Origin: Deltaproteobacteria bacterium
GTDB taxonomy: Bacteria; Myxococcota_A; Polyangia; JACRCY01
Reading direction: 5' to 3'
Length of the DNA: 37,699 bases
Assembly (NCBI GenBank): GCA_016218785.1
Contig: JACRCY010000058.1
Coordinates: 1-37,699, forward strand
Part shown: piece by piece, positions 7,800-37,039 of the stretch
Numbering within the stretch: the first letter of the stretch is position 1
Layout: every line of letters begins with the position of its first letter
Notes under the pieces: model-generated
Told to the model about the DNA's origin: nothing
The model's input: only the letters and a program-made list of their open reading frames with translations
Database searches by the model: none
Translations under genes and position numbers: made by a program

Positions 7800-7901
7800 C
7801 GGCGCCGGGGCGGCTCCCCCGACAGCCAGGACGGCGAGCGCGCCCGGGGTCGTCAGGACCAGCGAGGTAGTCGTCACCGTCGGACGTTAGCGCACGCGGA
7901 T

Positions 7902-10216: not shown

Positions 10217-10228
10217 GGCTCGGGCTGC

Positions 10229-11494: not shown

Positions 11495-11679
11495 CTCGCC
11501 CCAGGTGGAGGGCGCCCGTTCACCACCGCGCCCCGCACGCGCCACGACTCTAGCACGAACGCGCGAGGGCAAATAGGCACACTGTCATCGGCGGGTGTAC
11601 GGCTCAGGGCACACGGACTGGCTGGATCCACGCGCGGCGCCCGGCGGCGTTGGTGACCACGGCGCGCTCCAATCCGGGG

Positions 11680-12152: not shown

Positions 12153-12167
12153 GAGTGACGCCGCCCG

Positions 12168-15932: not shown

Positions 15933-16012
15933 GGGTCTCGTGGCCGTCGTCCTCGACCCGGAAGTGGCCGAGAAGATCGTGCGCCACCTGTTATGCCGAG
16001 TCGTCGGTTGTC

Positions 16013-16026
16013 CGGAGTCGACTCCG
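16013..16026. promoter_or_regulatory. Perfect 14-bp palindrome (candidate operator) in the divergent intergenic region
   Basis: CGGAGTCGACTCCG is its own reverse complement. It lies ~85 bp upstream of ATG 15932, next to three CACCGG motifs at 16047-16089. Confidence 0.3.
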
Positions 16027-16392
16027 TCGGGAGACGTGTGTGTCGCCACCGGTGACGCCGGGTACCAGTTCCACCGGAAACACCGGTGTCCAGGGACCCA
16101 CCCGGTAGCGGCGAGCCCGTGTGCCCCGGGAGCGGCCGCGAGCGTGTAACGCGTGATGGCGGTGCCGCCCGCGGCGCGCGGGGCCGCCGGCGGGGGGAGG
16201 GCCACCGCCGCGCCCAGGGAGTGGTGTGCATGGCTGGGGCTGATCGGGGCGGCGCCAGCGTAGGCCGCCAGCTCGCGGCGGCGACGGGCGAACCGTCAAT
16301 GATCTCGGGAACTACGAGTTCTGGCGAGGCACAGGCACCGGGCGTCCGTCCATAAGCGCAACTGGTCAACCCGCGCCGCGGATGCTACCTAT

Positions 16393-22213: not shown

Positions 22214-23910
22214 TCGTGCCTCTCGATCGCGGCGGCGATCCACTTCAGCAAACGACCGACCGATGGATCGCTACCCAGGGAGCCATCGTCCGGATCGCCT
22301 CGCGGCGCCAGCCACAGGAGATCATGCCGCGGCGTCCGGAGGAAGCACGGGCGCGCCTCGTCCCGTCGCCGGACCTGGACCTCGAGTTGCCGGCCCTGCT
22401 TCTCGAGGCGCAGCACCGGCCACCCCGCCATCGAGGCTCTCCCCCGCAGGACCCACCCTTCGGCCACCTCGGCTCCCGGCGCGAGATCGGGCAACAGGGT
22501 GCCGAGGTCGAGCGCCCCATCGCCTTCGAGGCCGAGGCGGGCCGCCGGGGCCGAAGGCGGCGTCAGATCCTCGAGGCCCGCCAGGTGCCGACCGGGCCAA
22601 GGATCCTCCCACAGGAAGAGGTCTCGCGCCTCGTGCTCCATCATGAAGCGCACCGCTCGCGCCAGATCCCGCTCCGGGAAGCTCGTGCTGGCGCGAAGGT
22701 AGGGAGCGCCTGGGCGCACCGTCTCGATCCCGAGTTGGCCGCGCTGTGCGTCGAAGGCCGACCCGGGCGTCACGATCATCCAGAACACGCGGACCGCCTT
22801 GATCCGGTCGCGCCGCCCGCGCACGCGCAGCCGCGCGAGGTAGTCGAGGGTCCGGCGGAACCCGTCGAGGCTGTCCGCCGGGATGCCTAGGATCACCGAG
22901 ATCGTCACCGGCCCGAGGACGCTCAGCGACTCGATCGCGCCTTCGAACCGGCTCTCGTCGAGAGGGCTGCGTCCGATGGAGCGGAGCACGGCGGGGTCCA
23001 CGCTCTCGAGCCCCACGTTGAGCTCGTGCGGTCGGATGCCGGAGAGGATCTCGACCTGCTCCTGGCGGAAGTGCTGGTGGCTGATGAAGAAGCTGAAGGC
23101 GACGCGCTGGCCCGGGACCTCGGCGCGGATGGCCTCCGCCAGCGCGCCCATGCGGGCCTCGTCGAAGTTCAGCGCCGAGTCGAGGATGAACACGTGGTCG
23201 CAGCGCCGCTCGACGGCGAAACGGACCTGATCGCGCATCACGGCGGGCGCGAAATACCGCACCTTTCCCATGAAGTTCTTCCAGGCGCAGTACTTGCATC
23301 GGAAGACGCAGCCGCGGGAGTACTCGAGCATGAGGTTGCTGCGCGGGGGATCGATGAGGCCGCCGAGGTACGGGGAGGGGAGCGTGCCGAGGTCGGCGAT
23401 CGGTGGTCGGGGCGCCGATTCGCGGAGGCTGCCGTCGGCCTCGCGCCACGCGAGGCCCGGGATCGCGCCCGCGTCCCCGAGGCCGCGCTCCAGCACCTCG
23501 GCGAGCGTCTCCTCGCCCTCGCCCAGCACGACGGCGTCGAGGGCCGCGAATCGCTCCAGGGTGGCCCGCGGCGCGAAGGTGACCGACGGGCCGCCGGCGA
23601 GGATGCGCACCCGCGGCGACAGTTGCTTCACTCGACGAACCACGGGCTCGAAGGCGTCCAGATCCCAGCAGAAGAGCGAGATGCCCACGACCTCGGGATC
23701 CGAGGCCAGGATCTCCTCGGCGGCCCGCGTGGGGAGGACGGGGTCGGCGAGGTCGAGCGGGAACTCCCGAATCGCCACCTCCACGTCGGGACGCCGGCCC
23801 GCGGCGTAGGCGGCGAGCGCCGGGAGAGCCAGGTTGTACCGCCGCGCCTCGGGGCCGGTGCCCGGGTGCTGCACCGCCGTGCCGGCAAGCGCGAGGCGTT
23901 TCGGCATCAT
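22210..23910 (-). CDS. B12-binding radical SAM enzyme (LPSPYL paralog family) with C-terminal shared module
   Basis: ORF 22210..24951 trimmed to ATG 23910 (MMPKRLALAGTAV). The upstream 347 aa of the ORF are Arg/Pro-rich read-through across the neighbouring gene. Motifs: VVGISLFCWDL, ILAGGPSVTF, VVLGEGEETL, LGTLPSPYL, EYSRGCVFRCKYCAW, VGLESVDPAVL, ILGIPADSLDGFRRTLDYL. The C-terminal 83 aa (22213..22461) form the shared module. Confidence 0.9.
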   Translation of the reverse strand: MMPKRLALAGTAVQHPGTGPEARRYNLALPALAAYAAGRRPDVEVAIREFPLDLADPVLPTRAAEEILASDPEVVGISLFCWDLDAFEPVVRRVKQLSPRVRILAGGPSVTFAPRATLERFAALDAVVLGEGEETLAEVLERGLGDAGAIPGLAWREADGSLRESAPRPPIADLGTLPSPYLGGLIDPPRSNLMLEYSRGCVFRCKYCAWKNFMGKVRYFAPAVMRDQVRFAVERRCDHVFILDSALNFDEARMGALAEAIRAEVPGQRVAFSFFISHQHFRQEQVEILSGIRPHELNVGLESVDPAVLRSIGRSPLDESRFEGAIESLSVLGPVTISVILGIPADSLDGFRRTLDYLARLRVRGRRDRIKAVRVFWMIVTPGSAFDAQRGQLGIETVRPGAPYLRASTSFPERDLARAVRFMMEHEARDLFLWEDPWPGRHLAGLEDLTPPSAPAARLGLEGDGALDLGTLLPDLAPGAEVAEGWVLRGRASMAGWPVLRLEKQGRQLEVQVRRRDEARPCFLRTPRHDLLWLAPRGDPDDGSLGSDPSVGRLLKWIAAAIERHE

Positions 23911-23993
23911 GACTCGTTCATTCTCCGCGATCTCCCGCGGGTTGTCGAAGGCGCACCGAGCAACCACGGCGTCGGTCCGCAGGTGCCCGGCGG

Positions 23994-25343
23994 CTATGCA
24001 ATGGGCTCGACTTCGGCGAGGCCGAAGCGCAGCACGTAGGCGCGCGGCAGGCCGAGGCACCACCGCGTCTGCGAGCACTGAGCGCAGCGCTTCGCCTTCA
24101 CCCAGGGCTTGCGCGTGTCCTCGATGCCGATCTCGGCGTCCCGCTGGACCGGTACGGCGCCGCCCGCGGCCTCGTTGCCGCCGCCCCGGCGCCGCAGGCT
24201 GGCGTCGACGAGGCAGGCGGGAATCGACGCGTGCGACGAGCTGAGCAGCGGCTCGCACACGACGCCGATCGCGGAGGCGCGGCGCGCCGCCGCCTGGAGC
24301 TTGGGTGCGAGCTCCGTGTAGGCCACGAGCACGGCCGGGGCAGCGGGCCGGTGGTCCGGGCACATCGTGATCGAGAAATGGATGCGCGGGGGCCGGGGAC
24401 CGAAGAGCTGCGGCACGGCGCCGACCCACTCGTCGAGGTGGTCGACGTTGTGGCGGTTCACGACCAGGTTCAGCACCACGTCGTGCTGGGCGGCGAGGAG
24501 GTTGCGGATGCCGGCGACCGCGCGGTCGAACTGGCCGCTCGAGCCAACGCACAGGTCGTAGACGTCCGGCCGCGCACCGTGGAAGGAGACGAAGAAGGCC
24601 AGGCGACGCGAGGGCGGCCACGGTGGGAGCGCGGCGGCGTCGGCGAATCCTACGGCGTTGGTCTGGATCTTGACCTGCAGCAGCTCGGGCCGGGCGAGGA
24701 GTCGGTCGACGACCTCGGCGAGCCCTGGCCACAGGGTGGGCTCGCCGCCCGTGAGCGTCGCGATCATCCGCGGGAACTGCGTGACGGCTGCGTCGAGCCA
24801 CGCGAGCACCGCCTCGATGGTCGGCTCCGCGTGGGGCGGGGGGGCCGAGCAGAACGGGCACGCCTGGTTGCAGCGCGAGGTGAGGCGGAGGAGGACCTCC
24901 GTGGACACGGCCTCGCCGGTCGGGCTCACCAGCCGCTCGATGCCGCACCACGAGAAGCCGGCAGGGCCGGAGGCGCCGGTGGTCGCCGCGAGGGCGTCCA
25001 CCCCGACCTTCGCCTCGAGCACTCGCGGGAAGCCGGCCTCGAGGGCGCGCAGCACGCCCACGAGGTCGTGCAGCTGGCCGAGCTGGTTCGGGGACAGACG
25101 GGCGGATCCGCGGTAGCAGAGGCCGTAGCGCGCGGTGCGCAGGATGTACCTCCCCGCGGGATCCAGCGGCTTGACCTCGACCTCGAGCGGCCGGCTGCTG
25201 GTGCCGCGCAAGGTGAGCGTGAGCACCCCGTTGAGGGCTGAGGCAGACACGACCGCGACCCCGGCCCGCTCGGCCGCGGCCACCAGGGTCCGGAGCCAGG
25301 GCGGCCCCGCCGGCCGGGGCTCGCCAGCGTCCGCGGGGGTCAT
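23994..25343 (-). CDS. Radical SAM enzyme (CxxCx5CxG paralog family) with N-terminal shared module
   Basis: ORF 23994..26351 trimmed to ATG 25343 (MTPADAGEPRPAG), an ATGA overlap with the upstream stop. The shared module covers residues ~27-103 (25035..25265). Motifs: LRLTSRCNQACPFCS (CX3CX2C), TLTGGEPTLWPG, QTNAVG, C-terminal KRCAQCSQTRWCLGLP. Confidence 0.85.
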   Translation of the reverse strand: MTPADAGEPRPAGPPWLRTLVAAAERAGVAVVSASALNGVLTLTLRGTSSRPLEVEVKPLDPAGRYILRTARYGLCYRGSARLSPNQLGQLHDLVGVLRALEAGFPRVLEAKVGVDALAATTGASGPAGFSWCGIERLVSPTGEAVSTEVLLRLTSRCNQACPFCSAPPPHAEPTIEAVLAWLDAAVTQFPRMIATLTGGEPTLWPGLAEVVDRLLARPELLQVKIQTNAVGFADAAALPPWPPSRRLAFFVSFHGARPDVYDLCVGSSGQFDRAVAGIRNLLAAQHDVVLNLVVNRHNVDHLDEWVGAVPQLFGPRPPRIHFSITMCPDHRPAAPAVLVAYTELAPKLQAAARRASAIGVVCEPLLSSSHASIPACLVDASLRRRGGGNEAAGGAVPVQRDAEIGIEDTRKPWVKAKRCAQCSQTRWCLGLPRAYVLRFGLAEVEPIA

Positions 25344-27646
25344 GCGACCTCCGGGGACCATCTCGCGAGGGCCTCCGACTGGCGGTAGAGAGCTTCGAAC
25401 TCCTCGCGCCACAGACCGAGACAGAGCACGAGCTCGGTGCAAGCGCGGCAACGATCCACGTGCTTCGCCTTCAGTCGGCGCAGCTCGGGGAAGCTGAAGA
25501 ACGGGAGCGGCGCCGCGCGCTCGCGGAGCTCGGGCGGCAGGAGGCAGAACGGCACGCCCTGGATGGAGAGGTCCAGGCGCGGGAAGTCGCGCAGGACGGA
25601 CACGATCGTGGGCATTGCCGCCGGGAACGGGAGGATGTCGTCGCGGTTCTCCAGCACGTTCCCGCGCGGCGCGGGGTAGCGCAGGTGCACGGTGCGGATG
25701 CCGCGAGCCGCGAGCAGGTCGACGGTCTCCCCGACGACCGCCAAGCCGGCGCGAGTCAGGCGCACCGTGACCTCCACCGTGATCCCCTGCTGCGAGGCGT
25801 TGCGGATGCCGGCGAGGGTCTGGTGCCATGCCCCGGTGACGCCGGCCATGCGGTCGTGCTCGGCGGCCCCCGGCGCGTGCACCGACGTGACGACGCGGTC
25901 GATGCCCGCCTCGGCGAGGCCTTGCGCCAGGCGCAAGTAGCCGAGCATGCGACCGTTCGTGGCGAGCGTGACGTGCCGGTAGCCCACCGCGCGCGCCTCG
26001 CGCGCGAGGCACAGGAGGGTCTCGGGTCGCAGCGTCGGCTCGCCGCCCTTGACGAGGAGCTCCACGGCGCCCCGGCCATGTCGCTCGCGCATCAGGGCGA
26101 GCAGCTCCTCGTCCGACGGCGGGGTGGCGGCGGGGGCGGTGCGCTCGCAATGGAGGCAACGGCTGTTGCACGGGGCGCCGAGGTCGACGACCGCGAGTGT
26201 CTCGCGGGCGTCTATGAGGAACCGGGCGTTGCGCTTGAAGCGCAGCACCTCGGCGGGGGTGAAGTCCGGCGTGCGGATGACCGGACGCGTCTCGAGCTCG
26301 CAGAGGGGGATCGTGTCGGGGTGGGGATCGAACCACGACCGCGCCTCGCACTCCCGGTAGAGCGCCGTGCCGCGGAACGGGATGGCGTGCTGGATGAGGG
26401 GGAGCGCGCCGAGCTCCTCGTGGAGCATGGTGGCGAACTCGAGGGTGTTGTTGATCTGGGGCTTGGTCTCGCCCGGCAGGCCGATGACGTAGTGAACCTG
26501 GCTGGGGAGCCCGAGGTCACGGCACGTGCGCGCGACCCCGATGACCGCCTTGAGGTCGAGCCGCTTCTGCACGATGCTCCGCAGGACCTCGGGGTCGCCG
26601 GACTCGGCCGAGACCGTCACCTTGGCGTTGCCGGCCCGGCGCATGAGGGCGAGCGTCTCCGTCGTGAGGCCGTCGGCGCGGTAGCCGTTCACCGCGTCCC
26701 AGGCGATCCCCTCGGCGGCGAGGAGCTCCACGAGCTGCCGGAACCGCTCCGGATCCACGGAGATGTTGTTGTCGAGGAAGAAGACGCGGTCGGCCCGGTA
26801 CCGCGCCACCAGCTCGCGGATCATGGGGGCGAGGTACTCGACGGAGTGAGCGCGCCAGGGATGTCGCAGCACCTGCTGCGTGCAGAAGCTGCACGAGTAG
26901 ACGCAGCCGCGGCTCGTTAGCAGCGGGAGGAACCGTCCCGGGGCGTGGTACTCGTGCACGAGGTCCGTCCGTACCGCGTCGGCGATGCAGGAGAAGTACC
27001 GCTCCATGTCGAGCAGGTGGAAGGCCGGCGGGGGCAGCGCGTCGAGCGGGCGGGTCGGGGCCGCCGTGCCGGGGTTGAGCCGGGCCTGCCCGTCGGCCCG
27101 GAACGCGACCTCCGGGATCCCGTCGAGGGGAGCGCGCGCCGTCAGCCGGCGCAGCACCTCCACGAGCTTCGCGTCGCCCTCGCCGAGCACCACGGCGTCC
27201 AGCTCCGGGACCTGCTCGAGCAGCCGGACCGGGTCATACGGGAAGTAGTTCATGCCGCAGACGTGGCAGTCGGCCACCAGGAGCGCCGCCTGCGGGTGGC
27301 TGCGCCGGAGCGCGGTGGCCACTTCGCGTACGTAGGTCTCCCCGAGCCGGTGGAGGTCGGAGAACATCGTCGAGACGATGACCACCGCCTCGGCACCGTG
27401 CTCGGCCGTGGCTGCGGCGAGGTCGTCCAGCTCCACGCCGACGTGCATCACGTCGGTCTGGAGGGCGCGGCAGTTCAGCCGGTCGCGCAGGTAGTAGGCG
27501 TCGACCACGGCGCCGGCGAGTCCCGCCTGCTCCACGACGGCGGCGTTGTAGAGCATGCCGATGTTCGAGAAGGTCGGGTAGTGCGCGAAGACCCGCGGCA
27601 GCTTCACGGGCGGGTTCACGAACAGCACTCGCGGCGGGCTCGGCAT
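25340..27646 (-). CDS. Double radical SAM fusion: B12-binding rSAM plus second rSAM domain (CxxCx5CxG family)
   Basis: ORF 25340..27655; start taken at ATG 27646 (MPSPPRVLFVNPP), a TGATG overlap with the upstream stop. First motif: LLTSRGCVYSCSFC (26882..26905), with VSAESGDPEVL and VIGLPGETKPQ. Second motif: DLGAPCNSRCLHC (26147..26170), with LLVKGGEPTLRPE, TLATNG and C-terminal DRCRACTELVLCLGLW. Confidence 0.9.
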   Translation of the reverse strand: MPSPPRVLFVNPPVKLPRVFAHYPTFSNIGMLYNAAVVEQAGLAGAVVDAYYLRDRLNCRALQTDVMHVGVELDDLAAATAEHGAEAVVIVSTMFSDLHRLGETYVREVATALRRSHPQAALLVADCHVCGMNYFPYDPVRLLEQVPELDAVVLGEGDAKLVEVLRRLTARAPLDGIPEVAFRADGQARLNPGTAAPTRPLDALPPPAFHLLDMERYFSCIADAVRTDLVHEYHAPGRFLPLLTSRGCVYSCSFCTQQVLRHPWRAHSVEYLAPMIRELVARYRADRVFFLDNNISVDPERFRQLVELLAAEGIAWDAVNGYRADGLTTETLALMRRAGNAKVTVSAESGDPEVLRSIVQKRLDLKAVIGVARTCRDLGLPSQVHYVIGLPGETKPQINNTLEFATMLHEELGALPLIQHAIPFRGTALYRECEARSWFDPHPDTIPLCELETRPVIRTPDFTPAEVLRFKRNARFLIDARETLAVVDLGAPCNSRCLHCERTAPAATPPSDEELLALMRERHGRGAVELLVKGGEPTLRPETLLCLAREARAVGYRHVTLATNGRMLGYLRLAQGLAEAGIDRVVTSVHAPGAAEHDRMAGVTGAWHQTLAGIRNASQQGITVEVTVRLTRAGLAVVGETVDLLAARGIRTVHLRYPAPRGNVLENRDDILPFPAAMPTIVSVLRDFPRLDLSIQGVPFCLLPPELRERAAPLPFFSFPELRRLKAKHVDRCRACTELVLCLGLWREEFEALYRQSEALARWSPEVA

Positions 27647-29433
27647 CAACCCCACGTGCCCTCGTTGCGACGCAGGAGACCGACTACCTCCCGCATCAGA
27701 GCATCGAGCCCCGGGCCGCGCAGTGGCCTGGGCACGTCACCTTGGTAGTAGACGTTGAACCGCGAGGTGTGCGCGAAGCAGGGGCTCGCTGCGTTGCGGC
27801 GATCGAGGCGCACGCAGACGACCGCCTCTCCCGTGTGCCGCCCGAAGGTGAGCACGGCGACCCCGTCACCGTCGAGCAACGGCGTCAGCGCGCGGAGCAT
27901 CCACCCCGCCCGGAAGGCCCCCGGCACCCTCGGCGCGACGAGGCGGCGGAGATCGTCGGCCGGCCCGGGCGCTCTCGGGTCGTGGAGGGTGTAGGCCCCC
28001 TCGGGTCGCTTGACGAACAGCGGGCGGCACACGCGCAGCTTGTTGAGGTACGAGAGCGCGCGCTGCAGATCGATCCGCGGGAAGGTGCCGACCTCGAGGA
28101 CGTAGGGGATCCCGCGCCCGGGGACGCGGATGCCCAGCTCGGCGCGTCGTCGCCACAGCGTGGTGCCGGGGAAGACCTGGAGCAGCGACACCAGCACGGC
28201 CCCGATCGGCGACCCCGCAGGCTCCGCCGCCAGCTCCCCGAGGTAGTCCATGGTCCGCTGGAACCCGTCGAGCGTGTCACCCGGGAGCCCCAGCACCACG
28301 CCGACGACCGTCGGCGGCGACGCGGCCGGGTCCGGCGCCAGCCGCCGGAGCAGCCGCAGGGCCGCCTGGAAGCGGCCGCGGTCGAGGGGCTCCCGGTCGC
28401 TCTGCCGCATCGCGCCCTCGGACAGCGACTCCATCCCCAGGAGCACCTGCTGGGCCCGGAGCCGTCCCAGGAGCTCGACCTGCGCCGGCGTGAGCAGCTC
28501 GTGGCGGAGGTTGTACGTGTAGCGGAGCTCCCGCCCGGGGTCCGCGGCCTCGGCCGCGGCCACGAAGCGCTCGAGCGTGCTCTGCTCGTAGTTGATCGCC
28601 GAGTCGATCAGGGTGACGTGCCGCACCTCGTTCCTGAGCGCCCAGCGGAGCTCGTCGACGAGGCGTGCCTGCGAGAAGGCCCGGCGCGTCTTCGCCGAGT
28701 TCCAGGCGCAGTAGCCGCAGCGGTTGAGACACCCGCGCGACAGCTCCAGCATCATCCCCTCGGGCGCGGGTTGCACGATTCCGGCGAGGTAGGGCGACGG
28801 GATGGTATCGAGGTCCGCGACCAGCTCGGCCGGGGGGCCGCTGACCACGTCTCCCGACGGGCTGCGGCCGAAGACCCCCGGTGGCAGGTCGTGCGCGAGG
28901 GGGAGGCCGGTCGCGCGCCACCGGCCCAGCAGCTCGACGAAGGAGCGCTCGGCCTCCCCGCCGACGACGTGGTCCAGGGTCGCGTGATCGCGCAGAAGGG
29001 CCGGCGCCATGTCCTCGACGGCGCGGCCGCCGACGACGGTGAGCGTCTCGGGTCGCCGTTGCTTGAGCCGCGCACAGGCCTCGAGGATCGCGTCGACGTT
29101 CCAGCAGTAGGCCGAGAAGCAGACGGCGTCGGGATCGCCGGCGGCGAGTTGCTCCACGTGGCGCTCGCTGAGGCGGAACTCCTCGTGCGGTGCCTCGGTG
29201 TCGGCGGGCAACGAGTCGTCGACCAGATCGAAGATCTCGATGCGGCAGTCCCGCTGGATCTCCGGCGTGGCGTCGCCGGCGGCCTTCAGGTAGGCCGCGG
29301 CGAGGCTGTAGGGTGCCTGCGCGAGCGCATCCCCGTAGCCGCCGAGGCTTGGCGTCGGCCCGGCATCCGCGTCGACGAGGCGGCGATGCAGCCCCACGAT
29401 CCGCACGTGCGCCACCGGCCGGTCCGTGGTCAC
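27646..29433 (-). CDS. B12-binding radical SAM enzyme (LPSPYL paralog family) with C-terminal shared module
   Basis: ORF 27646..29676 trimmed to GTG 29433 (VTTDRPVAHVRIVG), a GTGA overlap with the upstream stop. Motifs: AVCFSAYCWNV, TVVGGRAVED, HVVGGEAERSF, LDTIPSPYL, ELSRGCLNRCGYCAW, LGMESLSEGAM, VLGLPGDTLDGFQRTMDYL. The C-terminal 87 aa (27649..27909) form the shared module. Confidence 0.9.
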   Translation of the reverse strand: MTTDRPVAHVRIVGLHRRLVDADAGPTPSLGGYGDALAQAPYSLAAAYLKAAGDATPEIQRDCRIEIFDLVDDSLPADTEAPHEEFRLSERHVEQLAAGDPDAVCFSAYCWNVDAILEACARLKQRRPETLTVVGGRAVEDMAPALLRDHATLDHVVGGEAERSFVELLGRWRATGLPLAHDLPPGVFGRSPSGDVVSGPPAELVADLDTIPSPYLAGIVQPAPEGMMLELSRGCLNRCGYCAWNSAKTRRAFSQARLVDELRWALRNEVRHVTLIDSAINYEQSTLERFVAAAEAADPGRELRYTYNLRHELLTPAQVELLGRLRAQQVLLGMESLSEGAMRQSDREPLDRGRFQAALRLLRRLAPDPAASPPTVVGVVLGLPGDTLDGFQRTMDYLGELAAEPAGSPIGAVLVSLLQVFPGTTLWRRRAELGIRVPGRGIPYVLEVGTFPRIDLQRALSYLNKLRVCRPLFVKRPEGAYTLHDPRAPGPADDLRRLVAPRVPGAFRAGWMLRALTPLLDGDGVAVLTFGRHTGEAVVCVRLDRRNAASPCFAHTSRFNVYYQGDVPRPLRGPGLDALMREVVGLLRRNEGTWG

Positions 29434-31280
29434 GTCGCCGTCTCGCGCTGGGGAACGTGGCGCCGCGGGGCACCTTCCCGCAGCAGGTGGAGCACCCACT
29501 GGTTGTTGGTCAGCGCCGACACGGGTCGATGGTAGATCGTGCGCAGCGAGTGGAGCCGGAGGAAGGGCGCCACCTCCCAGCTGTCCCAGTTGCGCAGGTG
29601 CTGGTGTCCGGCGCGCGGCTGCCGATCGGCGAAATCGACCTGCCCGGAATTCCGCAGCAGGGCGAACGGGACGCACTCGGCGATGAGGAGGGTCCCGAGC
29701 GGCCGGGTCAGGGCCACCATGCGGGAGAGAGCCTCGCGGACGTCGGTGACGTGGTTGAGGGCGCGCAGGCAGAGGACGTGGTCGAAGTAGCCCGCCGCGT
29801 GCTCGAACCGTTCGATCTCCCCGACGTGGTAGCGACCCTGGGGGATCGCGCGCCTGAGCTCACTCACGGCCGCCTCGTCCGGATCGAGGCCGTGGTACTC
29901 GACCAATCCGGCTTGCACGAGAGGGGCGAGCTGAGCACGGTACAGTTGCTCGCCGCAGCCGACGTCGAGGATGCGTCCGCGCAGCCGGTGTACCCAGCCG
30001 GCGATCCAGCGCTCCTCGCGGCGGAAAGGCGGCTCGTCGACCTCGCGGAACCGCCGCCCGCAGCGCTCCTTCCGATCGCATGGATCGCAGTACGGGTCCG
30101 GCGCCACGCGGCGGATCGAGTCGACGAAGTCGTCGAGAGCTGCCGTCGCCGAACGGTCGAGATAGAGGTGGCCGAAGTCGTGCTTCACCCGGCTCACCTC
30201 GCTCAGCGAGAAGTCTCCGGTGTCGGTCCGGTAGAGCGTCAGCTCGCCGTCGCCGGCGAGGAAGAGCGCGCGCGCCGGGTCGACTCCCGGAGCGCGATCG
30301 GCCGTACACGCCGCGGGGGTCGGGGCCAGGGGGAGGGTGACGTCCTGGCGCACGAAATTGAAGGAGTTGGCGATCACGCTTCGTGCCGGCACGTCCGCGG
30401 CTCGCGGCACGAACCCCTCGAAGGGAACGCCGCGGCAACGCCTCCGTGCCGGGCAGGCGTCGCAGTGGTCGGTCGGGTACGACGGCGGCCGCCCCCGGTC
30501 GCCGAGACACGTCGCGGAGGGAGCCGAGCGGACCCCTGACCAGGTGCGCCGCGAGGGCGGACGCGCCACGTGGCTGGGCGCGGTCACCAGGCAATCCGGC
30601 AGCCCCTCCCAGACGAGGAGCGGGCGGAACGATTGGTGGTTCCAGCGCGCGAGGGCGTCCACCGCGCGTTGCAGGGTCACGACGTGGTCGGCCCCGGAGC
30701 CGAGGCCGGCCACGCTCAGGAGGAGGTGGTGATCGGGCGTCGAGAGGAGCGCGGCGAGGTGATCGACCATCGCCGGTGCGTCGGCGAGCGTGTCGGGGGA
30801 GAGGGCCAGGGAGACATCGAGGCTGGCATCCGCCGCGGCGCCCTCGTCCTCCAGCGCGCGCAGCCCGTCGAGGGTCTGGCGAAAGGAGCCCGGGACGCGC
30901 GTCACCTGGTCGTGTGACTCCTCCCAGCCGAAGAGCTGGACGCGCAGGTAGGCGAGCCCGGCGTTGCCCAGGCGCCGCCGCGCCTCGGGGTAGCAGAGCG
31001 CCCGCCCGTTGGTCACCAGCCCCGGCAGGAGCCCGGCCTCCCGGATGCGTCGCAGCAGGCCGAACACGTCGTGGCGGACGAACGGCTCACCGCCCACGAG
31101 CACGGCGAGTTGCCCCGCGTCGCCCTCCCGCCGCGCCTCGGACCGCCGCTGCAAGGCGCGCGGGATCTGCCCCGCGACGAGGCCCGGCGGCGCCGTCGCC
31201 GCGTCCACGGGACAGATCGTGCAGCGGCAGTTGCAGGCCGGGCCCACCCACAGCCAGGCCGAATCGGCGTCGGGCCTCAC
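29430..31280 (-). CDS. Radical SAM (CxxCx5CxG family) fused to a class I SAM-dependent methyltransferase
   Basis: 616-aa ORF with GTG start at 31280. N-terminal part: WVGPACNCRCTICP (CX3CX2C), VLVGGEPFVRHD, VTNGRAL, DHCDACPARRRCRGVP. C-terminal part (about 29601..30008): GRILDVGCGEQ (motif I), YHGLDPD, FDHVLCLRALNHV, TRPLGTLLIAE. The linker between them may hold a divergent shared module (30102..30374). Confidence 0.85.
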   Translation of the reverse strand: MRPDADSAWLWVGPACNCRCTICPVDAATAPPGLVAGQIPRALQRRSEARREGDAGQLAVLVGGEPFVRHDVFGLLRRIREAGLLPGLVTNGRALCYPEARRRLGNAGLAYLRVQLFGWEESHDQVTRVPGSFRQTLDGLRALEDEGAAADASLDVSLALSPDTLADAPAMVDHLAALLSTPDHHLLLSVAGLGSGADHVVTLQRAVDALARWNHQSFRPLLVWEGLPDCLVTAPSHVARPPSRRTWSGVRSAPSATCLGDRGRPPSYPTDHCDACPARRRCRGVPFEGFVPRAADVPARSVIANSFNFVRQDVTLPLAPTPAACTADRAPGVDPARALFLAGDGELTLYRTDTGDFSLSEVSRVKHDFGHLYLDRSATAALDDFVDSIRRVAPDPYCDPCDRKERCGRRFREVDEPPFRREERWIAGWVHRLRGRILDVGCGEQLYRAQLAPLVQAGLVEYHGLDPDEAAVSELRRAIPQGRYHVGEIERFEHAAGYFDHVLCLRALNHVTDVREALSRMVALTRPLGTLLIAECVPFALLRNSGQVDFADRQPRAGHQHLRNWDSWEVAPFLRLHSLRTIYHRPVSALTNNQWVLHLLREGAPRRHVPQRETAT

Positions 31281-31405
31281 CTCGGCCTCGCCGCGCGGGG
31301 CGCGGGCCCGGCGCGCCGGAGGCGGTCGCTGGTGCTCCAGTCCGCACCGGAACCTTCGCTCACTGTTCGACGGGCGAGGAGCAACGCGTCACGCTCGACT
31401 GGCTC

Positions 31406-31433
31406 AGTATAGCAGCCGACCCGGAGGCGGCAA
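31406..31433 (-). promoter_or_regulatory. Sigma70-like promoter candidate for the six-gene rSAM operon (31280 to 20666)
   Basis: Minus strand reads TTGCCG (31433..31428), 16 nt, TATACT (31411..31406). This would give a ~120-nt leader before GTG 31280. Confidence 0.35.
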
Positions 31434-31458
31434 CGGAGCGTGCGCGCCGCTGCCTCGC

Positions 31459-31487
31459 TTGACCACCCTCGACACCGGAGGCATGCT
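31459..31487 (+). promoter_or_regulatory. Sigma70-like promoter candidate for the nitrogenase-like operon
   Basis: TTGACC (31459..31464), 17 nt, CATGCT (31482..31487). A CACCGGAG motif lies in the spacer. The strong SD GGAGGGGAG precedes GTG 31532. Confidence 0.3.
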
Positions 31488-31531
31488 GACTGCGTGACGG
31501 ACGAGCCCGCGACGTCCCCCTCGGAGGGGAG

Positions 31532-33538
31532 GTGAGCCGCCGCGACGCCAGCAGCCCGGGCGGGCGTGCCGTCCTGCAGGGCAAGACGCTGGTCGGCGGT
31601 CCCCGGAGTCGCGCGCACTTCGCGGCCCTGCTCGGCCTGGACCGGGTCGCCCCTCTCGGGCAGACCCGCGTCGTCGCCGTCGCCTGGGTCGGCGATCACG
31701 TCGAGATCGAAGTCGCCGGGGTGGACGACCAGAGCGTGGTCTTCTTCCTCGACCGGTTTCAGGCCGACAAGCCACGGCTCTTCGCCACCGAGCACCTGGT
31801 GCTCTACTACCGCGGCGTCGGCATGTGGCCGGAGCTCGAGGAGCGGCTGCGCGCCGTCGAGCTCGGGCGCCTCGGGGAGCGCACCATCGAGGACCTCGCC
31901 GAGTTGATCGCCGCGGACACGGACGTCGACCCGGCCCACGACCGCCCGCCGCGCGTCAGCGCCGAGGGGCAGGACGCCTTCGACCGCCAGTCGCACCTCA
32001 GCACCTGGGCCTCGCCCCACGTCTGGTACCAGTTCTTCGGCGTCGCCGAGATCTGGCGGCAGCGACTCGACTCGCTCGACATCTTCGAGCGGTGCACCTT
32101 CATCCAGCACTGTGACCGCGAGTGCGTGCAGGTCGCGCCGCGCACGTACGTGCCGATGGTCGACGGAGTGTTCTACCCCTGGCTCGAGCGGGTGCGGCGG
32201 ATCGGCCGCGCGCGTCGACGCCCCTCTCCCGCTGTGGGCTCGGCCGCGACCCGGCCGCGGGGAACCGGTGAGCCGTTCGTGGACGATCCGAAGCACTCGA
32301 TGTGCACGACGGACATCACCGAGGCGGACGTGATCCTCGGCTCGCAGGAGAAGCTCGTGCGCGTCCTCGACGACGTGCTGGAGCGCGGCGTGGATCGCAC
32401 GCTGTTCCTGAGCTGCACGTGCGTCCCGTTCGTGACGGGAGAGGACGTGGAGTCGATCGTCAAGCGCTACCGGGCGAAGACCGATCGGCCCTTCTTCTAC
32501 CTCACGACCACCCCGCAATCGAGCGTGGGGGTGTTCCGGGACGTGCTGGTGCACCGGCGCCGGGCGGCCGAGCAGGCGGTCCCGCCCGGCGAGGTGACGC
32601 CGCACGCCGTCAACCTCGTCGGCTTCGCGCGGGATCCGGGGCTCGAGGAGCTCCGGGGGCTGCTCGCCCAGCTGGGGGTCAGTGTCAACGCCGTGTTCGT
32701 CCCCGAGATGGACTCCGCGGTCGTCGACACCCTGCCCCGAGCGTCGCTCCACGTGCTGTACCCGAACGTCCTGTGGCAGAGCATCTACGACCAGCTCCTC
32801 TTCGACTCGCGCATCACCGCGGTCTCGCCGGCGGCGCCGTACGGCGTGGCGGGGACGCAACGATGGCTCGAGAACGTGGCCGCGGCCGTGGGCCTGACGG
32901 TGACGGCTGGCGACGTCGTCGCGCGGGGTCTGGAGCCGCTCCGAGGGGTGTGGGACCGACTGAGGGCCGAGGCCGCCGGCACGCGGCTGGCGTTCGTGGT
33001 GGGCGCGGACGAGGCCTACCGCCTGGGCGACGCCACCACGACCTGGGGCGTGCCGCTGATCCCGATGCTCGAGGAGATGGGCTTCGGGCTCGAGGTCCTC
33101 ATCGGCGTCGCCGATCGTACGGCCGCGCGCGACGTGGCGACGCAGATCAACGCGGTGTTCGCCCACCCGGAGCGCCACGGCATCAGGGCGTTCCGTGACC
33201 GCGCTCGGCTCGACTCGCTCCTCGAGTCGGGGACGTTCGCCGCGGTCTACTCCGATCACCTCTTCGACCGTCGCCTGACCGCGGCGGGCAAGGCGCAGTT
33301 CAGCCTCCAGGAGTTCGAGAAGGGGGTCGGGGGGGCGGTCCGGACCCTCCGCCGCCTGCTGGAGGTGTGCCGGCTGCCGCTGTACCGCCGGTACCGGCGC
33401 CACCTGCCGGCCGCGGCCCAGCCCTACGCCGCGCCCATAACGCGTGGCACGAGGCGAGGGGGCCGCGAGGGGCTCGCGGGGCCGGGCGGTCCCGACAAGC
33501 TCACGGGCCCAGGCGCCCTGGTGGATGGACGACGGTGA
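31532..33538 (+). CDS. Nitrogenase component-1-type oxidoreductase family protein (NifD/NifE/BchN-like) with N-terminal shared module
   Basis: 668-aa ORF; GTG 31532 directly follows GGAGGGGAG. The shared module covers residues ~45-127 (31664..31912). The core reads FIQHCDRECVQ, then SMCTTDITEADVILGSQEKLVRVLDDVLERGVDRTLFLSCTCVPFVTGEDVESIV. This matches the sT.l.E.d.vfGG..kL...i.v..tC....iGDD pattern, followed by Rossmann-like VNLVGF and LAFVVGAD segments. Confidence 0.75.
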   Translation: MSRRDASSPGGRAVLQGKTLVGGPRSRAHFAALLGLDRVAPLGQTRVVAVAWVGDHVEIEVAGVDDQSVVFFLDRFQADKPRLFATEHLVLYYRGVGMWPELEERLRAVELGRLGERTIEDLAELIAADTDVDPAHDRPPRVSAEGQDAFDRQSHLSTWASPHVWYQFFGVAEIWRQRLDSLDIFERCTFIQHCDRECVQVAPRTYVPMVDGVFYPWLERVRRIGRARRRPSPAVGSAATRPRGTGEPFVDDPKHSMCTTDITEADVILGSQEKLVRVLDDVLERGVDRTLFLSCTCVPFVTGEDVESIVKRYRAKTDRPFFYLTTTPQSSVGVFRDVLVHRRRAAEQAVPPGEVTPHAVNLVGFARDPGLEELRGLLAQLGVSVNAVFVPEMDSAVVDTLPRASLHVLYPNVLWQSIYDQLLFDSRITAVSPAAPYGVAGTQRWLENVAAAVGLTVTAGDVVARGLEPLRGVWDRLRAEAAGTRLAFVVGADEAYRLGDATTTWGVPLIPMLEEMGFGLEVLIGVADRTAARDVATQINAVFAHPERHGIRAFRDRARLDSLLESGTFAAVYSDHLFDRRLTAAGKAQFSLQEFEKGVGGAVRTLRRLLEVCRLPLYRRYRRHLPAAAQPYAAPITRGTRRGGREGLAGPGGPDKLTGPGALVDGRR

Positions 33539-34905
33539 GCGAGCCGACGCACGGGGCGGCAGGACCCGAGGGGGTGGCCCCGTCGAACGCGGCCGACTGG
33601 TCGGACCGCGTCTCGCTCACCTTCACCATCGGCGTCTACGTCGCGATCAACGCGCTGCGCGACGCGTACTGCATCGTGGACGGACCCGACTGCGCCCACC
33701 TGAAGACCCAGTTCCTGCAGGGCAACCACGACTGGCTCGCCGACCTGACGAGCGTCACCGGGGTCCACCGCATCGCCAACACCGACCTGCACCCCTGGAA
33801 GATGGTGCTGGGTCGCGACGAGGCGGTGGAGGGGTTCCTGCGCCAGATGGCGAGCTTCGACGGGGCCGCGGCGGTCCTCATCACGTCGCTGCCCATGGCG
33901 ACGATCACCGGGCTCGACTACGACCGCGTCACGCGCACGGTCGGCCTCGAGACCGGCACGGTGGTCGCGAGCGTGCCGAGCGCCTCGCTCGCCGGCGACT
34001 GGCTCGACGGCTACGCCGCGACGCTCAAGACGCTCGCGCGGGCCGTGGACCTGGACGGCGCGGCGCCGCAGCCGGGCAACGTCGCCGTGGTCGGATACCT
34101 GCTGGACCGGCACGAGGGGGACCACCGGGCGAACCTGGCCGAGATGCGTCGCCTCCTGGAGGGGCTCGGGCTGCGCCTGGGATCGGTGTGGCTGTCGGGG
34201 GGCAGCGTCGCCGAGTTGGGCGAGGTGCGGCACGCGAGCGCGATCGTCTCGCTGCCCTACGGCCGCGAGGCCGCGACGATCCTGGCCCGCCGGCTCGGGC
34301 TGCCGCTCATCGAGACGGGGCTGCCGCTCGGCCTCGACGGCACGGAGCGATGGCTGCGGCAGCTCGCGGAGCCACTCGGATGCGCCGACCGCGTCGACCA
34401 GGTCGTCGCGCCCGAGCTCGCGCGTGCCGTGCCCAGCATCGAGTGGGTGGTGCCGTACCACCTGTTGCACCGACGCGTGGTCTTCGTCGGGGACCCTCAC
34501 CTGGGTCTCGCCCTCGACGAGGCGGCGGGTGAGGTCGGGCTGACGGTCGAGCGCCATGTGATCCTCAACCGCCGGGGCCACGCCGAGGCGCTCCTCCGCC
34601 GCTGCGGCGAGGAGCGGGTCGTCCTCGACCCCAAACGGAACACGCTGCAGCAGGTCCTGGCGCCGCTGTTCCACGACGGTGGCTGCGACCTCCTGGTGAC
34701 GAGCAGCCTGGGGGTGACACCAGGCCTGGGAGGGGCCGCCATCGTCGAAGTCGGGTTCCCGTCCTTCTTCACGCACGCGCTCGAAGACCGGCCGTTCCTC
34801 TTCTTCCGCGGCTTCGTCGCGCTCGTCGAGCGGATGGTGAACGAGCTGCGCCGGGCGGAGCTGACCGCTTCGCTGCTCGGCGAGACTCCTGGCCCGGCTG
34901 ACTAG
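33535..34905 (+). CDS. Nitrogenase component-1-type oxidoreductase family protein (NifK/NifN/BchB-like), divergent
   Basis: Frame of ORF 33367..34905 trimmed to GTG 33535 (VSEPTHGAAG), a GTGA overlap with the upstream stop. Motifs: GVYVAINALRDAYCIVDGPDCAHLK (HGxxGC-like position), IANTDLHPWKMVLGRDEAVEGFL, AAVLITSLPMATITGLDYDRV (the usual Cys and GDD are replaced), NVAVVGYLL, RVVFVGDPHLGLAL. Confidence 0.7.
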   Translation: MSEPTHGAAGPEGVAPSNAADWSDRVSLTFTIGVYVAINALRDAYCIVDGPDCAHLKTQFLQGNHDWLADLTSVTGVHRIANTDLHPWKMVLGRDEAVEGFLRQMASFDGAAAVLITSLPMATITGLDYDRVTRTVGLETGTVVASVPSASLAGDWLDGYAATLKTLARAVDLDGAAPQPGNVAVVGYLLDRHEGDHRANLAEMRRLLEGLGLRLGSVWLSGGSVAELGEVRHASAIVSLPYGREAATILARRLGLPLIETGLPLGLDGTERWLRQLAEPLGCADRVDQVVAPELARAVPSIEWVVPYHLLHRRVVFVGDPHLGLALDEAAGEVGLTVERHVILNRRGHAEALLRRCGEERVVLDPKRNTLQQVLAPLFHDGGCDLLVTSSLGVTPGLGGAAIVEVGFPSFFTHALEDRPFLFFRGFVALVERMVNELRRAELTASLLGETPGPAD

Positions 34906-36422
34906 AAATCGTGGACGAAGTAGGGCCGGTCGCGGCTCTCGACCCAACGCGCGAAGACCTCCTCGCGGAGCCGCTCGTCCCCCGCGCCGAGCAACTGGAA
35001 GAGGTGGTCCATGAGGCCCATGTGGATCCGGCACTTCTGGTTGTCGGCCATCCGGCCGAAGATGTTCCCCTGCGTCGAGTAGTTGAAGACCGGGCAGGTG
35101 CCGCAGAAGGGCAGGTAGGCGCAGTCGGCGCAGCCGGGCAGCCCCTCGAGGCACGAGGCCAGCGCCACCGAACGGACGACCGGGCTCTCGATGAGATCGC
35201 CGTAGCCATCGTGTTCCAGGTTCCCGATCTGGAAGACCGAGTCGCCCATCTGGTGGAGCATGCGCGCCTCGTCGCAGCAGAAGACGGCGCCGTCGAAGCT
35301 GTAGGCGATCTGGCCGATCCCCGCCCCGCAGGGCGAGCGGATGTCGAGGTAGTTGGGGTCGTCGCCGGTGAGGATCTTCACCAGGAAGATGGTCGCCAGC
35401 CGCTCCAGGATCTCCTTGCCCTCGAGGTTGAGCGCGATGATGTAGTCGAGCGCCTCGCGGTGGAAGGCCAGGAACTCCTCGGCGCCGTAGCCGATGCGGC
35501 CCGCCGTCTTGCGCGCGAAGCCGAAGGGGTTCAGCGGCCGGAGGAAGACCGCCTTGAGCCCGCGCTTCACGTACTCGTCGACGATGTCGCGGGCGCGCCC
35601 CAGCGACTGGCGCGTGACCGTGAGCAACGCCTCGACGTGGTAGAGCGCCGGGTCGAGGCCGCGGTCCAGGTACCCCTGGTCGATGCGCTCCATCCAGCGC
35701 AGCGTCGCGGCGTGGGAGTTGCCGTGCGCCAGGGGGCGGTTGGCGTTGTGGAGATCCTCGGGGCCGTCGAGCGACGTGCAGACCTGGATGCCGTGATCCA
35801 GGATGAAGGCGAGCTTCTCGTCGTCCATCAGGCTCAGGTTGGAGACGAGCGAGAAGGCCAGGGTCTTGCGCACCGTGGCGTTGAGCTCGAGCGCCTTCTC
35901 TACGGTGTGGCGGACGACGGCGAAGTTCGCGAGCGGCTCGCCGCCCTGGAACTCGAGGGTGATGGAGGGGGCCGGGGTCTGCATGGCCACCTGCACCGCC
36001 CGCTCGGCGACCTCGGGGGACATGTCGAACTCGGTCGCGTCCATCGGCCGGCGGCTGGCGTGGCAGTAGACGCAGGCCTGGTTGCAGCGGAGCGAGGTGA
36101 TGAGCACGTGGAGGTAGGGGCCCAGGCCGAGGAACGCCTTGCGCTGGGCGAGCTGCGCGGTCCGTTCCTCCTCCCCCTGTCCTCCCTGGAGGAACCCGGC
36201 CTCGAGGAGGCGCGTGCGGAGGTTCCCGTCCGGCGCGAAGTTGCCGGAGACCAGCTGCTCGAACTCCGCCTCGCTCAGGAGCTGGTAGGAGCCGCCGTCG
36301 TTCGTCAGCAGCACCTGGCCGCCGAGGTGGCGGAAGCGGAAGTGGTTGCTGCGCTGGAGGCCGGGGTACCCGGAGGCGGGTGGCGCCACGCCGAGCGGGG
36401 CCGGGCGGTCGGGCGCGGTCAT
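34902..36422 (-). CDS. Radical SAM / SPASM-domain maturase, AnSME family, HxsB-like N-terminus
   Basis: ORF 34902..36938 trimmed to ATG 36422 (MTAPDRPAPLG), an ATGA overlap with the upstream stop. N-terminal region: NHFRFRHLGGQVLLTNDGGSYQLLSEAEFEQLVSGN. rSAM motif: ITSLRCNQACVYCHAS, with LEFQGGEPLAN. SPASM cysteines: SPCGAG..DGAVFCCDE and LPGCADCAYLPFCGTCPV. Confidence 0.88.
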   Translation of the reverse strand: MTAPDRPAPLGVAPPASGYPGLQRSNHFRFRHLGGQVLLTNDGGSYQLLSEAEFEQLVSGNFAPDGNLRTRLLEAGFLQGGQGEEERTAQLAQRKAFLGLGPYLHVLITSLRCNQACVYCHASRRPMDATEFDMSPEVAERAVQVAMQTPAPSITLEFQGGEPLANFAVVRHTVEKALELNATVRKTLAFSLVSNLSLMDDEKLAFILDHGIQVCTSLDGPEDLHNANRPLAHGNSHAATLRWMERIDQGYLDRGLDPALYHVEALLTVTRQSLGRARDIVDEYVKRGLKAVFLRPLNPFGFARKTAGRIGYGAEEFLAFHREALDYIIALNLEGKEILERLATIFLVKILTGDDPNYLDIRSPCGAGIGQIAYSFDGAVFCCDEARMLHQMGDSVFQIGNLEHDGYGDLIESPVVRSVALASCLEGLPGCADCAYLPFCGTCPVFNYSTQGNIFGRMADNQKCRIHMGLMDHLFQLLGAGDERLREEVFARWVESRDRPYFVHDF

Positions 36423-37039
36423 GGCGCCTCGCCTCCGGTTCCCTTCTTGGCGTCGTCGGTGGCGGTCGCGGCGGCCGGCGCCGCGGCGTGATCGGTCGCG
36501 GGGGCGCTCGGCGCCTCGGCTGGCGGGGTCGCGGCCGGATCGGCCTTGCCGGCGAAGCGCTGCTCCCACGGCACGCCGATACCGAGCGGATCGGCGAAGA
36601 AGTCGTCCTCCTCCCCGGGTACGTCGGGCGAGCCGGCGAGCTCCTTGTCGAGGTGCTCGACCTCGTCGGCGCCCACCCCTTCGTCTGCGGCGGCGTCGCG
36701 GCCCTCGGGGACGGCGCCGAAGAGCGCCCGCGCCATGATGCTCTCTCGCGCCTTCTCGTGCTGCTGGTCGACGTAGTGCCTCAACGCCTGGCTCAGGAGC
36801 TCGTTCTGGAAATCGGCGGCCACGGTCGTCGGCTCGGCGACCGCACCCCCGGCCTTCGGCGACAGCGAGACCCTGACCTTGCCCTCGACCGGCTTGTCGA
36901 GGAACACGTACCAGCGGTCGACGAAGACGTAGCCGCAACCGAAGATCGCGGCGAGCGGGTAGACGGAGAGATCAACGGTGAAATCGACGCTCCCGTTCGG
37001 CGCAGCCGACACCGAAACGCCGTCAGTCAGTTCCAGCAT
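36419..37039 (-). CDS. HxsD-like small protein with ~100-aa acidic, Pro/Ala-rich C-terminal tail
   Basis: 206-aa ORF with ATG 37039. The N-terminal ~105 aa (VDLSVYPLAAIFGCGYVFVDRWYVFLDKP..VRVSLSPK..FQNELLSQALRHYVDQQHEKARESIMARALFG) fit my recollection of the HxsD family pattern (Y..a...aaY.f.d..y..l; F.nellDq.lR). The tail reads DEGVGADEVEHLDKELAGSPDVPGEEDDFFADPLGIGVPWEQRF..PPAEAPSAPATDHAAAPAAATATDDAKKGTGGEAP. Confidence 0.6.
   Translation of the reverse strand: MLELTDGVSVSAAPNGSVDFTVDLSVYPLAAIFGCGYVFVDRWYVFLDKPVEGKVRVSLSPKAGGAVAEPTTVAADFQNELLSQALRHYVDQQHEKARESIMARALFGAVPEGRDAAADEGVGADEVEHLDKELAGSPDVPGEEDDFFADPLGIGVPWEQRFAGKADPAATPPAEAPSAPATDHAAAPAAATATDDAKKGTGGEAP

Follow-up and report, generated by a model that had tools for sequence, protein, structure and literature searches.

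The question raised by this locus is what a nitrogenase-like protein pair may do in the midst of a cluster of radical S-adenosylmethionine (rSAM) enzymes when no gene for a NifH-type partner lies beside it. The window analyzed here is an entire contig of 37,699 bp with 72% GC, which belongs to a metagenome-assembled genome (MAG) labelled Deltaproteobacteria bacterium, and the genes in question encode an alpha-like (NflD-like) subunit of 668 aa (31532..33538, forward strand; record MBI5477779.1, locus tag HY906_02920) and a beta-like (NflK-like) subunit of 456 aa (33535..34905, forward strand). An initial annotation of this DNA had taken them for an orphan pair, for which a role as a scaffold or holder was as plausible as that of an ATP-driven reductase. 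According to the analysis described below, the pair is probably the catalytic component of a Group VI nitrogenase-like system, its operon being part of an rSAM-rich biosynthetic cluster in a Polyangia/Myxococcota genome, and it would operate as an ATP-driven reductase with a NifH-like partner encoded elsewhere.

Genes were called from the GC content of third codon positions (GC3), and domains were assigned by Pfam and NCBIfam scans. The alpha gene starts with GTG after a GGAGGGGAGG ribosome-binding site, the beta gene starts with GTG inside a GTGA overlap with the alpha stop, and the GC3 signature of both frames is gene-like in this DNA of 72% GC. PF00148, with a cutoff of 28.6 bits, matched both proteins significantly, with an E-value of 8e-25 and 87.9 bits confined to aa 254-505 in alpha and an E-value of 4e-44 and 151.5 bits over the full length in beta. 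The Pfam-detectable domain of alpha begins only at aa 254 because, in the AlphaFold2 model (mean predicted local distance difference test score [pLDDT] of 72, with the core mostly >80), a low-confidence insert of ~55 aa splits off the N-terminal part of the NifD-like fold, which is formed by aa ~150-225 and holds an invariant H-x-D-x-E-C motif. The best Foldseek matches of this model were NifE, NifD, and MarD (E-values of 1e-15 to 1e-12, 14-17% identity), and in a sequence search of the PDB the best matches of both subunits were MarD/MarK (9fmg, 9d9u) and NifE, with E-values of only ~1e-8. Both proteins clearly carry the nitrogenase component-1 fold and sequence signature. For the pair, all NCBIfam equivalog models remained far under their cutoffs, with 49.4 bits vs 505 for nifE, 15.7 bits vs 327 for nifN, 31-43 bits vs 324-420 for the BchN models, 33-39 bits vs 490 for the BchB models, 35 bits vs 529 for BchZ, and 25.5 bits vs 268 for CfbD; as judged from these sequence comparisons, the pair belongs to no characterised clade. 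The initial annotation had described a GTGA-coupled nitrogenase-like pair within an rSAM cluster, outside characterised clades such as BchNB/BchYZ. This description was borne out by the PF00148 matches, the 13 rSAM genes of the window, and the low equivalog scores, and the peptide strings quoted in it were all present.

In the family alignment, the invariant residues of alpha include H193, D195, C198, and T296-C297-V298-P299, and its invariant cysteines are two, namely C198 in H-x-D-x-E-C and C297 in TCVP. Mapped by spacing, C198 would correspond to the cysteine of the HGPxGC motif. In the beta family, the sole conserved cysteine is that of VDGPDC, found in 6 of the 7 aligned beta sequences, and the third cysteine motif is replaced by TSMPMAxITGxDYD. 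The loss of the Cys/GDD segment from beta had been pointed out earlier; the segment is indeed missing, but its loss is family-wide and not specific to this gene, and the cysteine of a SMCTTD string that had been quoted is shared by the closest relatives only. The cysteine of the conserved GFCYT motif of MarD, which we take to be the equivalent of NifD Cys275, a ligand of the M/L-cluster cofactor, is aligned with P411 of alpha, a residue that hardly varies in the family. We infer that alpha/beta would hold one [4Fe-4S] cluster between the subunits and would have no complex cofactor. Separately, one 826-aa homologue (P0021, on a 41.5-kb ENA contig) is apparently an alpha-beta single chain, but the reading frame is lost halfway through its beta part, which suggests a frameshift or an assembly error rather than a true fusion.

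Meheust et al. (2020; doi 10.1101/765248) described the "Group VI" nitrogenase paralogs of groundwater Elusimicrobia, two Gracilibacteria, and fourteen aquatic Myxococcales genomes, which comprise a NifH-like protein and NifD/K-like proteins ~23-25% identical to the true ones and devoid of some P-cluster cysteines, with up to 13 adjacent radical-SAM genes, several of them B12-binding. Their guess at the product was a reduced tetrapyrrole, based on the position next to Group V, as its sister, in the NifH phylogeny and on the B12-binding and HemN_C domains in neighbours (doi 10.1101/765248), and it is repeated in a 2026 Chem Rev review (PMC13474568). According to section 7 of this review, Group VI is without NifB and Cys275/His442, retains no more than four of the six P-cluster cysteines, and is without any characterised member, genomic context having been so far of little help toward its function (PMC13474568). 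The cultured Enhygromyxa salina SWB007 is listed among the carriers of Group VI nifH. The pair studied here retains C198, so counted by spacing, and C297 in alpha and one cysteine (GPDC) in beta, which is within this limit of four of six. In addition, alpha is 33% identical over 492 aa (E-value of 1e-72) to a NifH-alpha fusion of Elusimicrobia (P0333), which shares HxDxEC and TCVP; this fusion is one of those annotated as Elusimicrobia that are retrieved by a distant family member in which NifH is fused to alpha (L020), and another of them bears the N-terminal module of alpha described below. Because of this homology to the Elusimicrobia fusions with the same two motifs, the pair is filed as a putative Myxococcota member of Group VI. 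The arrangement matches these published paralogs and is of a described, uncharacterised kind. A literature search joining nitrogenase-like, radical SAM, and biosynthetic gene cluster gave no result.

No NifH was found in the 37.7 kb by tblastn with two family NifH-like queries (best E-value of 0.24) or by comparison of a NifH profile with the six-frame translation of the window (best E-value of 1.3), and PF00142 matched none of the Pfam-scanned window genes. In relatives, the site of the NifH-like gene is that occupied here by the divergent intergenic region of ~250 bp (31281..31531) between the start of alpha and that of g17, which encodes an rSAM-SAM-methyltransferase fusion (29430..31280, reverse strand; Pfam) divergent from alpha, and neither tblastn nor the profile detected a NifH remnant in this gap. 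The reported absence of a NifH-type gene from the 37.7 kb was thus confirmed. It was also considered that the N-terminal extension of alpha might be a degenerate NifH; this was rejected, as the profile and tblastn gave noise only and the fusions bear NifH besides the module.

The relatives of alpha present a different picture. An indexed homologue search returned only 30 homologues, all metagenomic, and an exhaustive HMMER search of 1.84 billion representatives gave 298 clusters at a threshold of E<=1e-30, a number that rose to 782 at E<=1e-3. The related loci retrieved numbered 74, with a distinct alpha gene in 63, and the named genomes among them were nearly all Myxococcota or Polyangia MAGs. 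The NifH-like protein of the family has 270-275 aa, a P-loop, and both cluster cysteines (Cys97 and Cys132, as seen in L002), and reaches 268-273 bits with the CfbC and NifH models. When its position was counted over the 31 loci that bear the module and show 1 kb or more of upstream sequence, the gene was immediately upstream of alpha, usually coupled to it, in 22, elsewhere in cis in two or three further loci, and not visible in 7, the window included; in L025 and L046, it follows a g14-like rSAM gene ~3.5 kb downstream of beta. Of the 152 family representatives that were used for fusion and module counts, 16 have NifH joined to the N-terminus of alpha, some of them in the order NifH-module-alpha. 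The genes travelling with alpha in the 33 distinct loci that span 12 kb or more were beta (32 loci), NifH (23), and the g14-like rSAM gene (16), the last being the most conserved neighbour of the pair after beta and NifH. NifH is adjacent to alpha even in close relatives, such as L008 (64% identity), L023 (61%), L007 and L021 (59% each), and L022 (58%). The pair is thus an orphan in cis, but it belongs to a group that is overwhelmingly NifH-linked, and a scaffold or holder role can no longer be put on a par with that of an ATP-driven reductase in view of the coupling of NifH upstream of alpha at 59-64% identity, the 16 fusions, and the scattered NifH-less tips of the tree.

The window arrangement is genuine, because its layout recurs in P0002, an 80%-identical contig of independent origin that was obtained from an unrelated JGI sample, with a g17-type gene divergent from alpha/beta and no NifH; a g17 counterpart also adjoins the pair in L007. 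In a simple neighbour-joining tree of the family, built without support values, the window and P0002 are sister to a NifH-adjacent pair, and another NifH-less member (P0004, locus L001) lies inside a clade with NifH on the same contig. On this tree, the absence of NifH looks recent and repeated, through separate losses or relocations, as would be expected for relocation of the gene. Moreover, L005 has two divergent alpha/beta pairs (4210-7442, reverse strand; 9177-13806, forward strand) and a single NifH-like gene; therefore, use of the partner in trans exists in the family.

The N-terminal extension of alpha is a module at aa ~11-134 (31562..31933, forward strand; family profile E-value of 9e-54), for which a module-only AlphaFold2 model had a pLDDT of 88.9 and a beta-alpha-beta4-alpha3 topology; Foldseek found no match to this fold in the PDB (best E-value of 0.46). 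It is present in 73 of the 152 representatives, in two copies in some and between NifH and alpha in some. Plain BLAST detected no relatives of the module in the window at E<1e-3. The alpha-module profile matched the C-terminal tail of the rSAM protein g16 with an E-value of 0.002, and hhalign aligned the alpha module with the rSAM tails of g10, g13, and g16 at a probability of 92.7%. An iterative profile seeded with these three tails converged on a domain of ~95 aa, which is found in six window proteins, namely alpha and five rSAM enzymes. The domain is N-terminal in alpha (31604-31882) and in g14 (~442 aa; 23994..25322, reverse strand; module at 25035-25319, E-value of 1e-21) and C-terminal in the B12-binding rSAM proteins g16 (27646..29676, reverse strand, the 5' limit being that of the longest open reading frame [ORF], unrefined; module at 27658-27963, 6e-16), g13 (22210..23950, reverse strand, start approximate; module at 22213-22518, 7e-13), and g10 (17851..19547, forward strand, start approximate; module at 19236-19544, 4e-11), all three assigned by Pfam, as well as in g08 (12168..16205, reverse strand; module at 12171-12455, 1e-14), a giant protein of 1345 aa with a ~900-aa N-terminal domain followed by the rSAM domain and the module (Pfam and NCBIfam). 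In a set of 9,277 six-frame pieces, the module profile matched 108 times at E<=1e-3, whereas the best E-value of reversed-sequence decoys was 0.54. The domain also occurs in orthologues of the module proteins of the window and in small stand-alone proteins of other loci. The initial annotation had described an N-terminal extension of ~130 aa with a cluster-specific module; the module is shared with other window proteins as claimed, but it is a family-wide feature and not specific to this cluster. Because one small domain sits at either end of six different cluster enzymes, we infer that it could be a common recruitment or docking domain.

Several other arrangements of the module were observed. 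L016 has a module-only ORF between the NifH-like gene and a module-bearing alpha (8262-10354), one alpha of L005 has two tandem copies, and stand-alone module proteins are encoded in L002 (18728-19357), L007 (13002-13520), and L054 (beside HxsD). The ~900-aa N-terminal part of g08 matched no family; it corresponds to a separate protein of 941-952 aa that adjoins the pair in L002 (1953-4778) and L005 (15952-18810) and likewise ends in the shared module. A relationship of the module to HxsD was examined and rejected (hhalign probability of 1.5%).

Downstream of the pair are genes of His-Xaa-Ser peptide maturation. HxsB (g20; 34902..36401, reverse strand), an rSAM maturase of the His-Xaa-Ser system, is convergent with beta, with overlapping stops, and scores 527.8 bits on TIGR03978 vs a cutoff of 370. 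It is followed by an HxsD-like protein (g21; 36419..37039, reverse strand), which scores 49.8 bits on TIGR03976 vs a cutoff of 50 and is homologous to the PF27806 HxsD gene of L002. The best HxsC-like score in the window was 70.7 bits vs a cutoff of 267.9, that of g14, whose similarity to HxsC is thus weak. Precursors of the HxsA type, consisting of a leader, 14-25 perfect HGS repeats, and a terminal W, are encoded beside HxsB/HxsD and nitrogenase-like genes in five related loci (L002 at 16694; L014 at 17376, reverse strand; L032 at 19832; L052 at 14469, reverse strand; and L054 at 2110, reverse strand), and HxsB is present in three further loci (L008, L027, and L033), in two of them with HxsD. 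A peptide-derived substrate is favoured because the family recurrently adjoins these maturation genes and (HGS)n-W precursors. Furthermore, the Pfam-scanned window genes contain no domain for tetrapyrrole biosynthesis and no HemN_C domain; therefore, the results suggest that a peptide-derived substrate is at least as likely as the published tetrapyrrole. Adjacent to HxsB, a conserved ORF of 72-86 aa was also noted in L008 (8671-8931) and L002 (14802-15020), with a C-terminal E-L-x-N-Y-A-L-A reminiscent of the 'LLNDYxLRE' in the name of the HxsD model; tblastn found no counterpart of it in the window.

Taken together, an ATP-driven reductase with its partner in trans is preferred to a scaffold because the relatives are overwhelmingly NifH-linked, with NifH upstream of or fused to alpha. 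In the mechanism that we consider probable, alpha and beta would assemble into a heterotetramer in which a single [4Fe-4S] cluster lies between the subunits, as in dark-operative protochlorophyllide oxidoreductase (DPOR), chlorophyllide oxidoreductase (COR), and NifEN, and a NifH-like ATPase, the gene of which would in this lineage lie outside the operon, elsewhere in the genome or past the contig end, would supply it with low-potential electrons. The heterotetramer may then reduce, in an ATP-driven manner, an unsaturated intermediate made by the rSAM and B12-rSAM enzymes of the cluster, the module of ~95-120 aa possibly gathering alpha and the five rSAM enzymes at a common substrate or carrier, which would more likely be peptide-derived than a tetrapyrrole.

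Some observations count against this mechanism or parts of it. The test of Group VI membership was indirect, consisting of homology and matching descriptors, and the assignment of alpha C198 as a cluster ligand is based on motif spacing. No NifH-like gene lies in the 37.7 kb, and none of the top 120 NifH-like database matches was attributable to this MAG; two of them are named 'Deltaproteobacteria bacterium', with accessions far from MBI5477779. Six more distant relatives are without NifH within about +/-5-10 kb, so that NifH independence is conceivable in some lineages. As for the substrate, a repeat regular expression, a tandem-repeat search, and a small-ORF listing all failed to reveal an HxsA-type precursor in the window, and only about 9 of 34 loci (about a quarter) include Hxs genes.

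Such independence is the alternative that survives best. The pair would then be an enzyme that truly dispenses with NifH, either by use of another donor, such as a DUF362 + 2x[4Fe-4S] protein, or as a non-catalytic holder or chaperone of an rSAM-made intermediate, as the initial annotation had proposed with its scaffold role. It would account for the 37.7 kb without NifH, for the NifH-less layout in both P0002 and L001, and for the six further loci without NifH in their visible flanks. The window also encodes a DUF362 + 2x[4Fe-4S] ferredoxin fusion (4009-5685, reverse strand; Pfam), for which tblastn reached 120 bits in none of the 33 related loci that are 12 kb or longer; this protein could be an alternative electron carrier of the cluster. 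However, there is no sign of a changed function, because the closest NifH-bearing relatives, at 59-64% identity, keep the same motifs, and the loss of NifH is scattered over the tree, as gene relocation predicts. The contig ends 2.8 kb past the beta stop, whereas the NifH of L025 and L046 lies ~3.5 kb downstream, and every characterised member of the superfamily depends, as far as we know, on a NifH-type partner. We therefore regard an enzyme independent of NifH as rather unlikely.

With the ATP-driven reductase and its partner in trans retained as the preferred reading, the published guess on the product of Group VI provides another alternative, in which the substrate would be a porphyrinoid and reduction of one of its C=C bonds by the pair would yield a new cofactor, as with DPOR, COR, and CfbCD. 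The published NifH phylogeny, with Group VI as sister to Group V, and the B12-binding and HemN_C neighbours agree with it, and so does a [4Fe-4S]-only ligand pattern like that of DPOR and COR. Yet the scanned window genes have neither tetrapyrrole-biosynthesis nor HemN_C domains, the B12-binding domains denote the use of a cofactor by class B rSAM enzymes and not a substrate, and the neighbours are of peptide-maturase types (HxsB, HxsD, and HxsC-like), with (HGS)n-W precursors in the relatives. The BchN, BchB, BchZ, and CfbD models are also far under their cutoffs, and tetrapyrrole reduction by the pair appears to us quite improbable. It is still harder to believe that the pair is a decaying, non-functional remnant after NifH loss: the partner gene usually coupled to alpha is missing, but the frames are full-length and translationally coupled, with a strong ribosome-binding site and gene-like GC3, all family-invariant residues are kept, and an orthologue of 80% identity has the same layout. 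Finally, a NifEN-like scaffold for a complex metallocluster from one of the rSAM enzymes, for which the presence of NifE among the best sequence and fold matches and the location amid rSAM enzymes might speak, is barely credible given the nifE score of 49 bits vs 505, the proline at the presumed M/L-cluster ligand position (GFCYT in MarD), and a gene content without NifB-type or NifX-domain genes, in which the rSAM enzymes are B12-binding, SPASM/HxsB-like, or HxsC-like. Group VI genomes are likewise without NifB (PMC13474568).

The rest of the window is dominated by rSAM enzymes. According to Pfam and NCBIfam, 13 genes have an rSAM domain and six to seven of these are B12-binding, the remaining types being SPASM/HxsB-like and HxsC-like; one is the SAM-methyltransferase fusion and one has two rSAM domains, and neither NifB nor NifX was among the genes scanned. 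The cluster probably extends beyond the window because the thirteenth rSAM gene (1-~1080, reverse strand; motif GCPFACTFCP) is cut by the left contig end. The two-domain rSAM fusion, g15 (25340-27655, reverse strand), has an N-terminal half of the B12-binding P-methyltransferase or HpnJ type and a C-terminal half that spans the complete HxsC profile at 70.6 bits, under the cutoff of 268, and its orthologues are found in L002 and L041. Other genes encode a beta-propeller protein and several large proteins that match no family, including those at 5664-7799 (forward strand) and 7902-9614 (reverse strand). Within 5664-11572, in the middle of the rSAM cluster, there are a family 2 (GT2) glycosyltransferase gene and a UDP-glucose/GDP-mannose dehydrogenase-like gene.

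This analysis provides three handles on the function of Group VI, namely a canonical NifH, in most cases coupled or fused to alpha yet separable from it, a previously unremarked domain common to the reductase and the surrounding rSAM enzymes, which argues for one substrate or carrier, and a repeated association with genes for His-Xaa-Ser peptide maturation, the (HGS)n-W precursors of which are unusual. With them, "unknown cofactor synthesis" can be replaced by a testable hypothesis, ATP-driven reduction in a peptide-derived pathway. In its most specific form, which we offer as a tentative conjecture, Group VI enzymes would be peptide- or protein-maturation reductases acting on rSAM-modified (HGS)n-W, the module would be a new substrate-recruitment domain with a role like that of the recognition element (RRE) in pathways of ribosomally synthesized and post-translationally modified peptides (RiPPs), and the lineage of the window would be without a dedicated cluster NifH. 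If ATP-driven reduction in such a pathway holds true, both the nitrogenase superfamily and RiPP-like biosynthesis would gain a chemistry of a new type.

Several known systems share features with the pair. NifEN (9ian) was the top Foldseek match of the alpha model, with an E-value of 2.5e-15; it has a [4Fe-4S] cluster with 3+1 cysteines and needs an upstream rSAM enzyme, whereas the pair has a proline in place of the L-cluster ligand, no NifB, no NifX, and 49 bits vs 505 on the nifE model. MarDK, the methylthio-alkane reductase of Group IV-C, has the same fold and is the best sequence match of both subunits among solved structures, but it differs in the cofactor cysteine, at the presumed position of which the pair has a proline, and in structural identity, which is 14-17%, and the window has no NifB/MarB homologue. 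With DPOR (BchNB/ChlNB) and COR (BchYZ) of Group V, the pair is expected to share a heterotetramer with a single inter-subunit [4Fe-4S] cluster, asymmetric ligands, no M-cluster, and ATP-driven reduction of a biosynthetic intermediate; it is unlike them in its scores far below the cutoffs, the absence of tetrapyrrole genes nearby, and the extra N-terminal module of alpha.

The His-Xaa-Ser system (HXS; HxsABCD) of E. coli is an rSAM-dependent protein-maturation system for phage defence, and no nitrogenase-like component is mentioned for it (PMC13128918). The window is like it in that HxsB and an HxsD-like gene adjoin beta and that relatives encode HxS-repeat precursors. It is unlike it in that the window yielded neither an equivalog-level HxsC nor an HxsA, a nitrogenase-like component is present here and not in the described HXS, and the myxobacterial precursors are short, with 14-25 HGS repeats and a W, whereas HxsA of E. 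coli is peptidoglycan-binding and has five repeats. With respect to Group VI itself, the NifH-like gene that defines the group is missing on this contig, and the shared ~95-aa module and the His-Xaa-Ser association are not in doi 10.1101/765248 or PMC13474568. The likeness nevertheless extends to a very divergent NifD/K pair with few P-cluster cysteines, no cysteine for the iron-molybdenum cofactor (the Cys275 position), and no NifB, to a large suite of rSAM enzymes that includes B12-binding types, and to a Myxococcales host.

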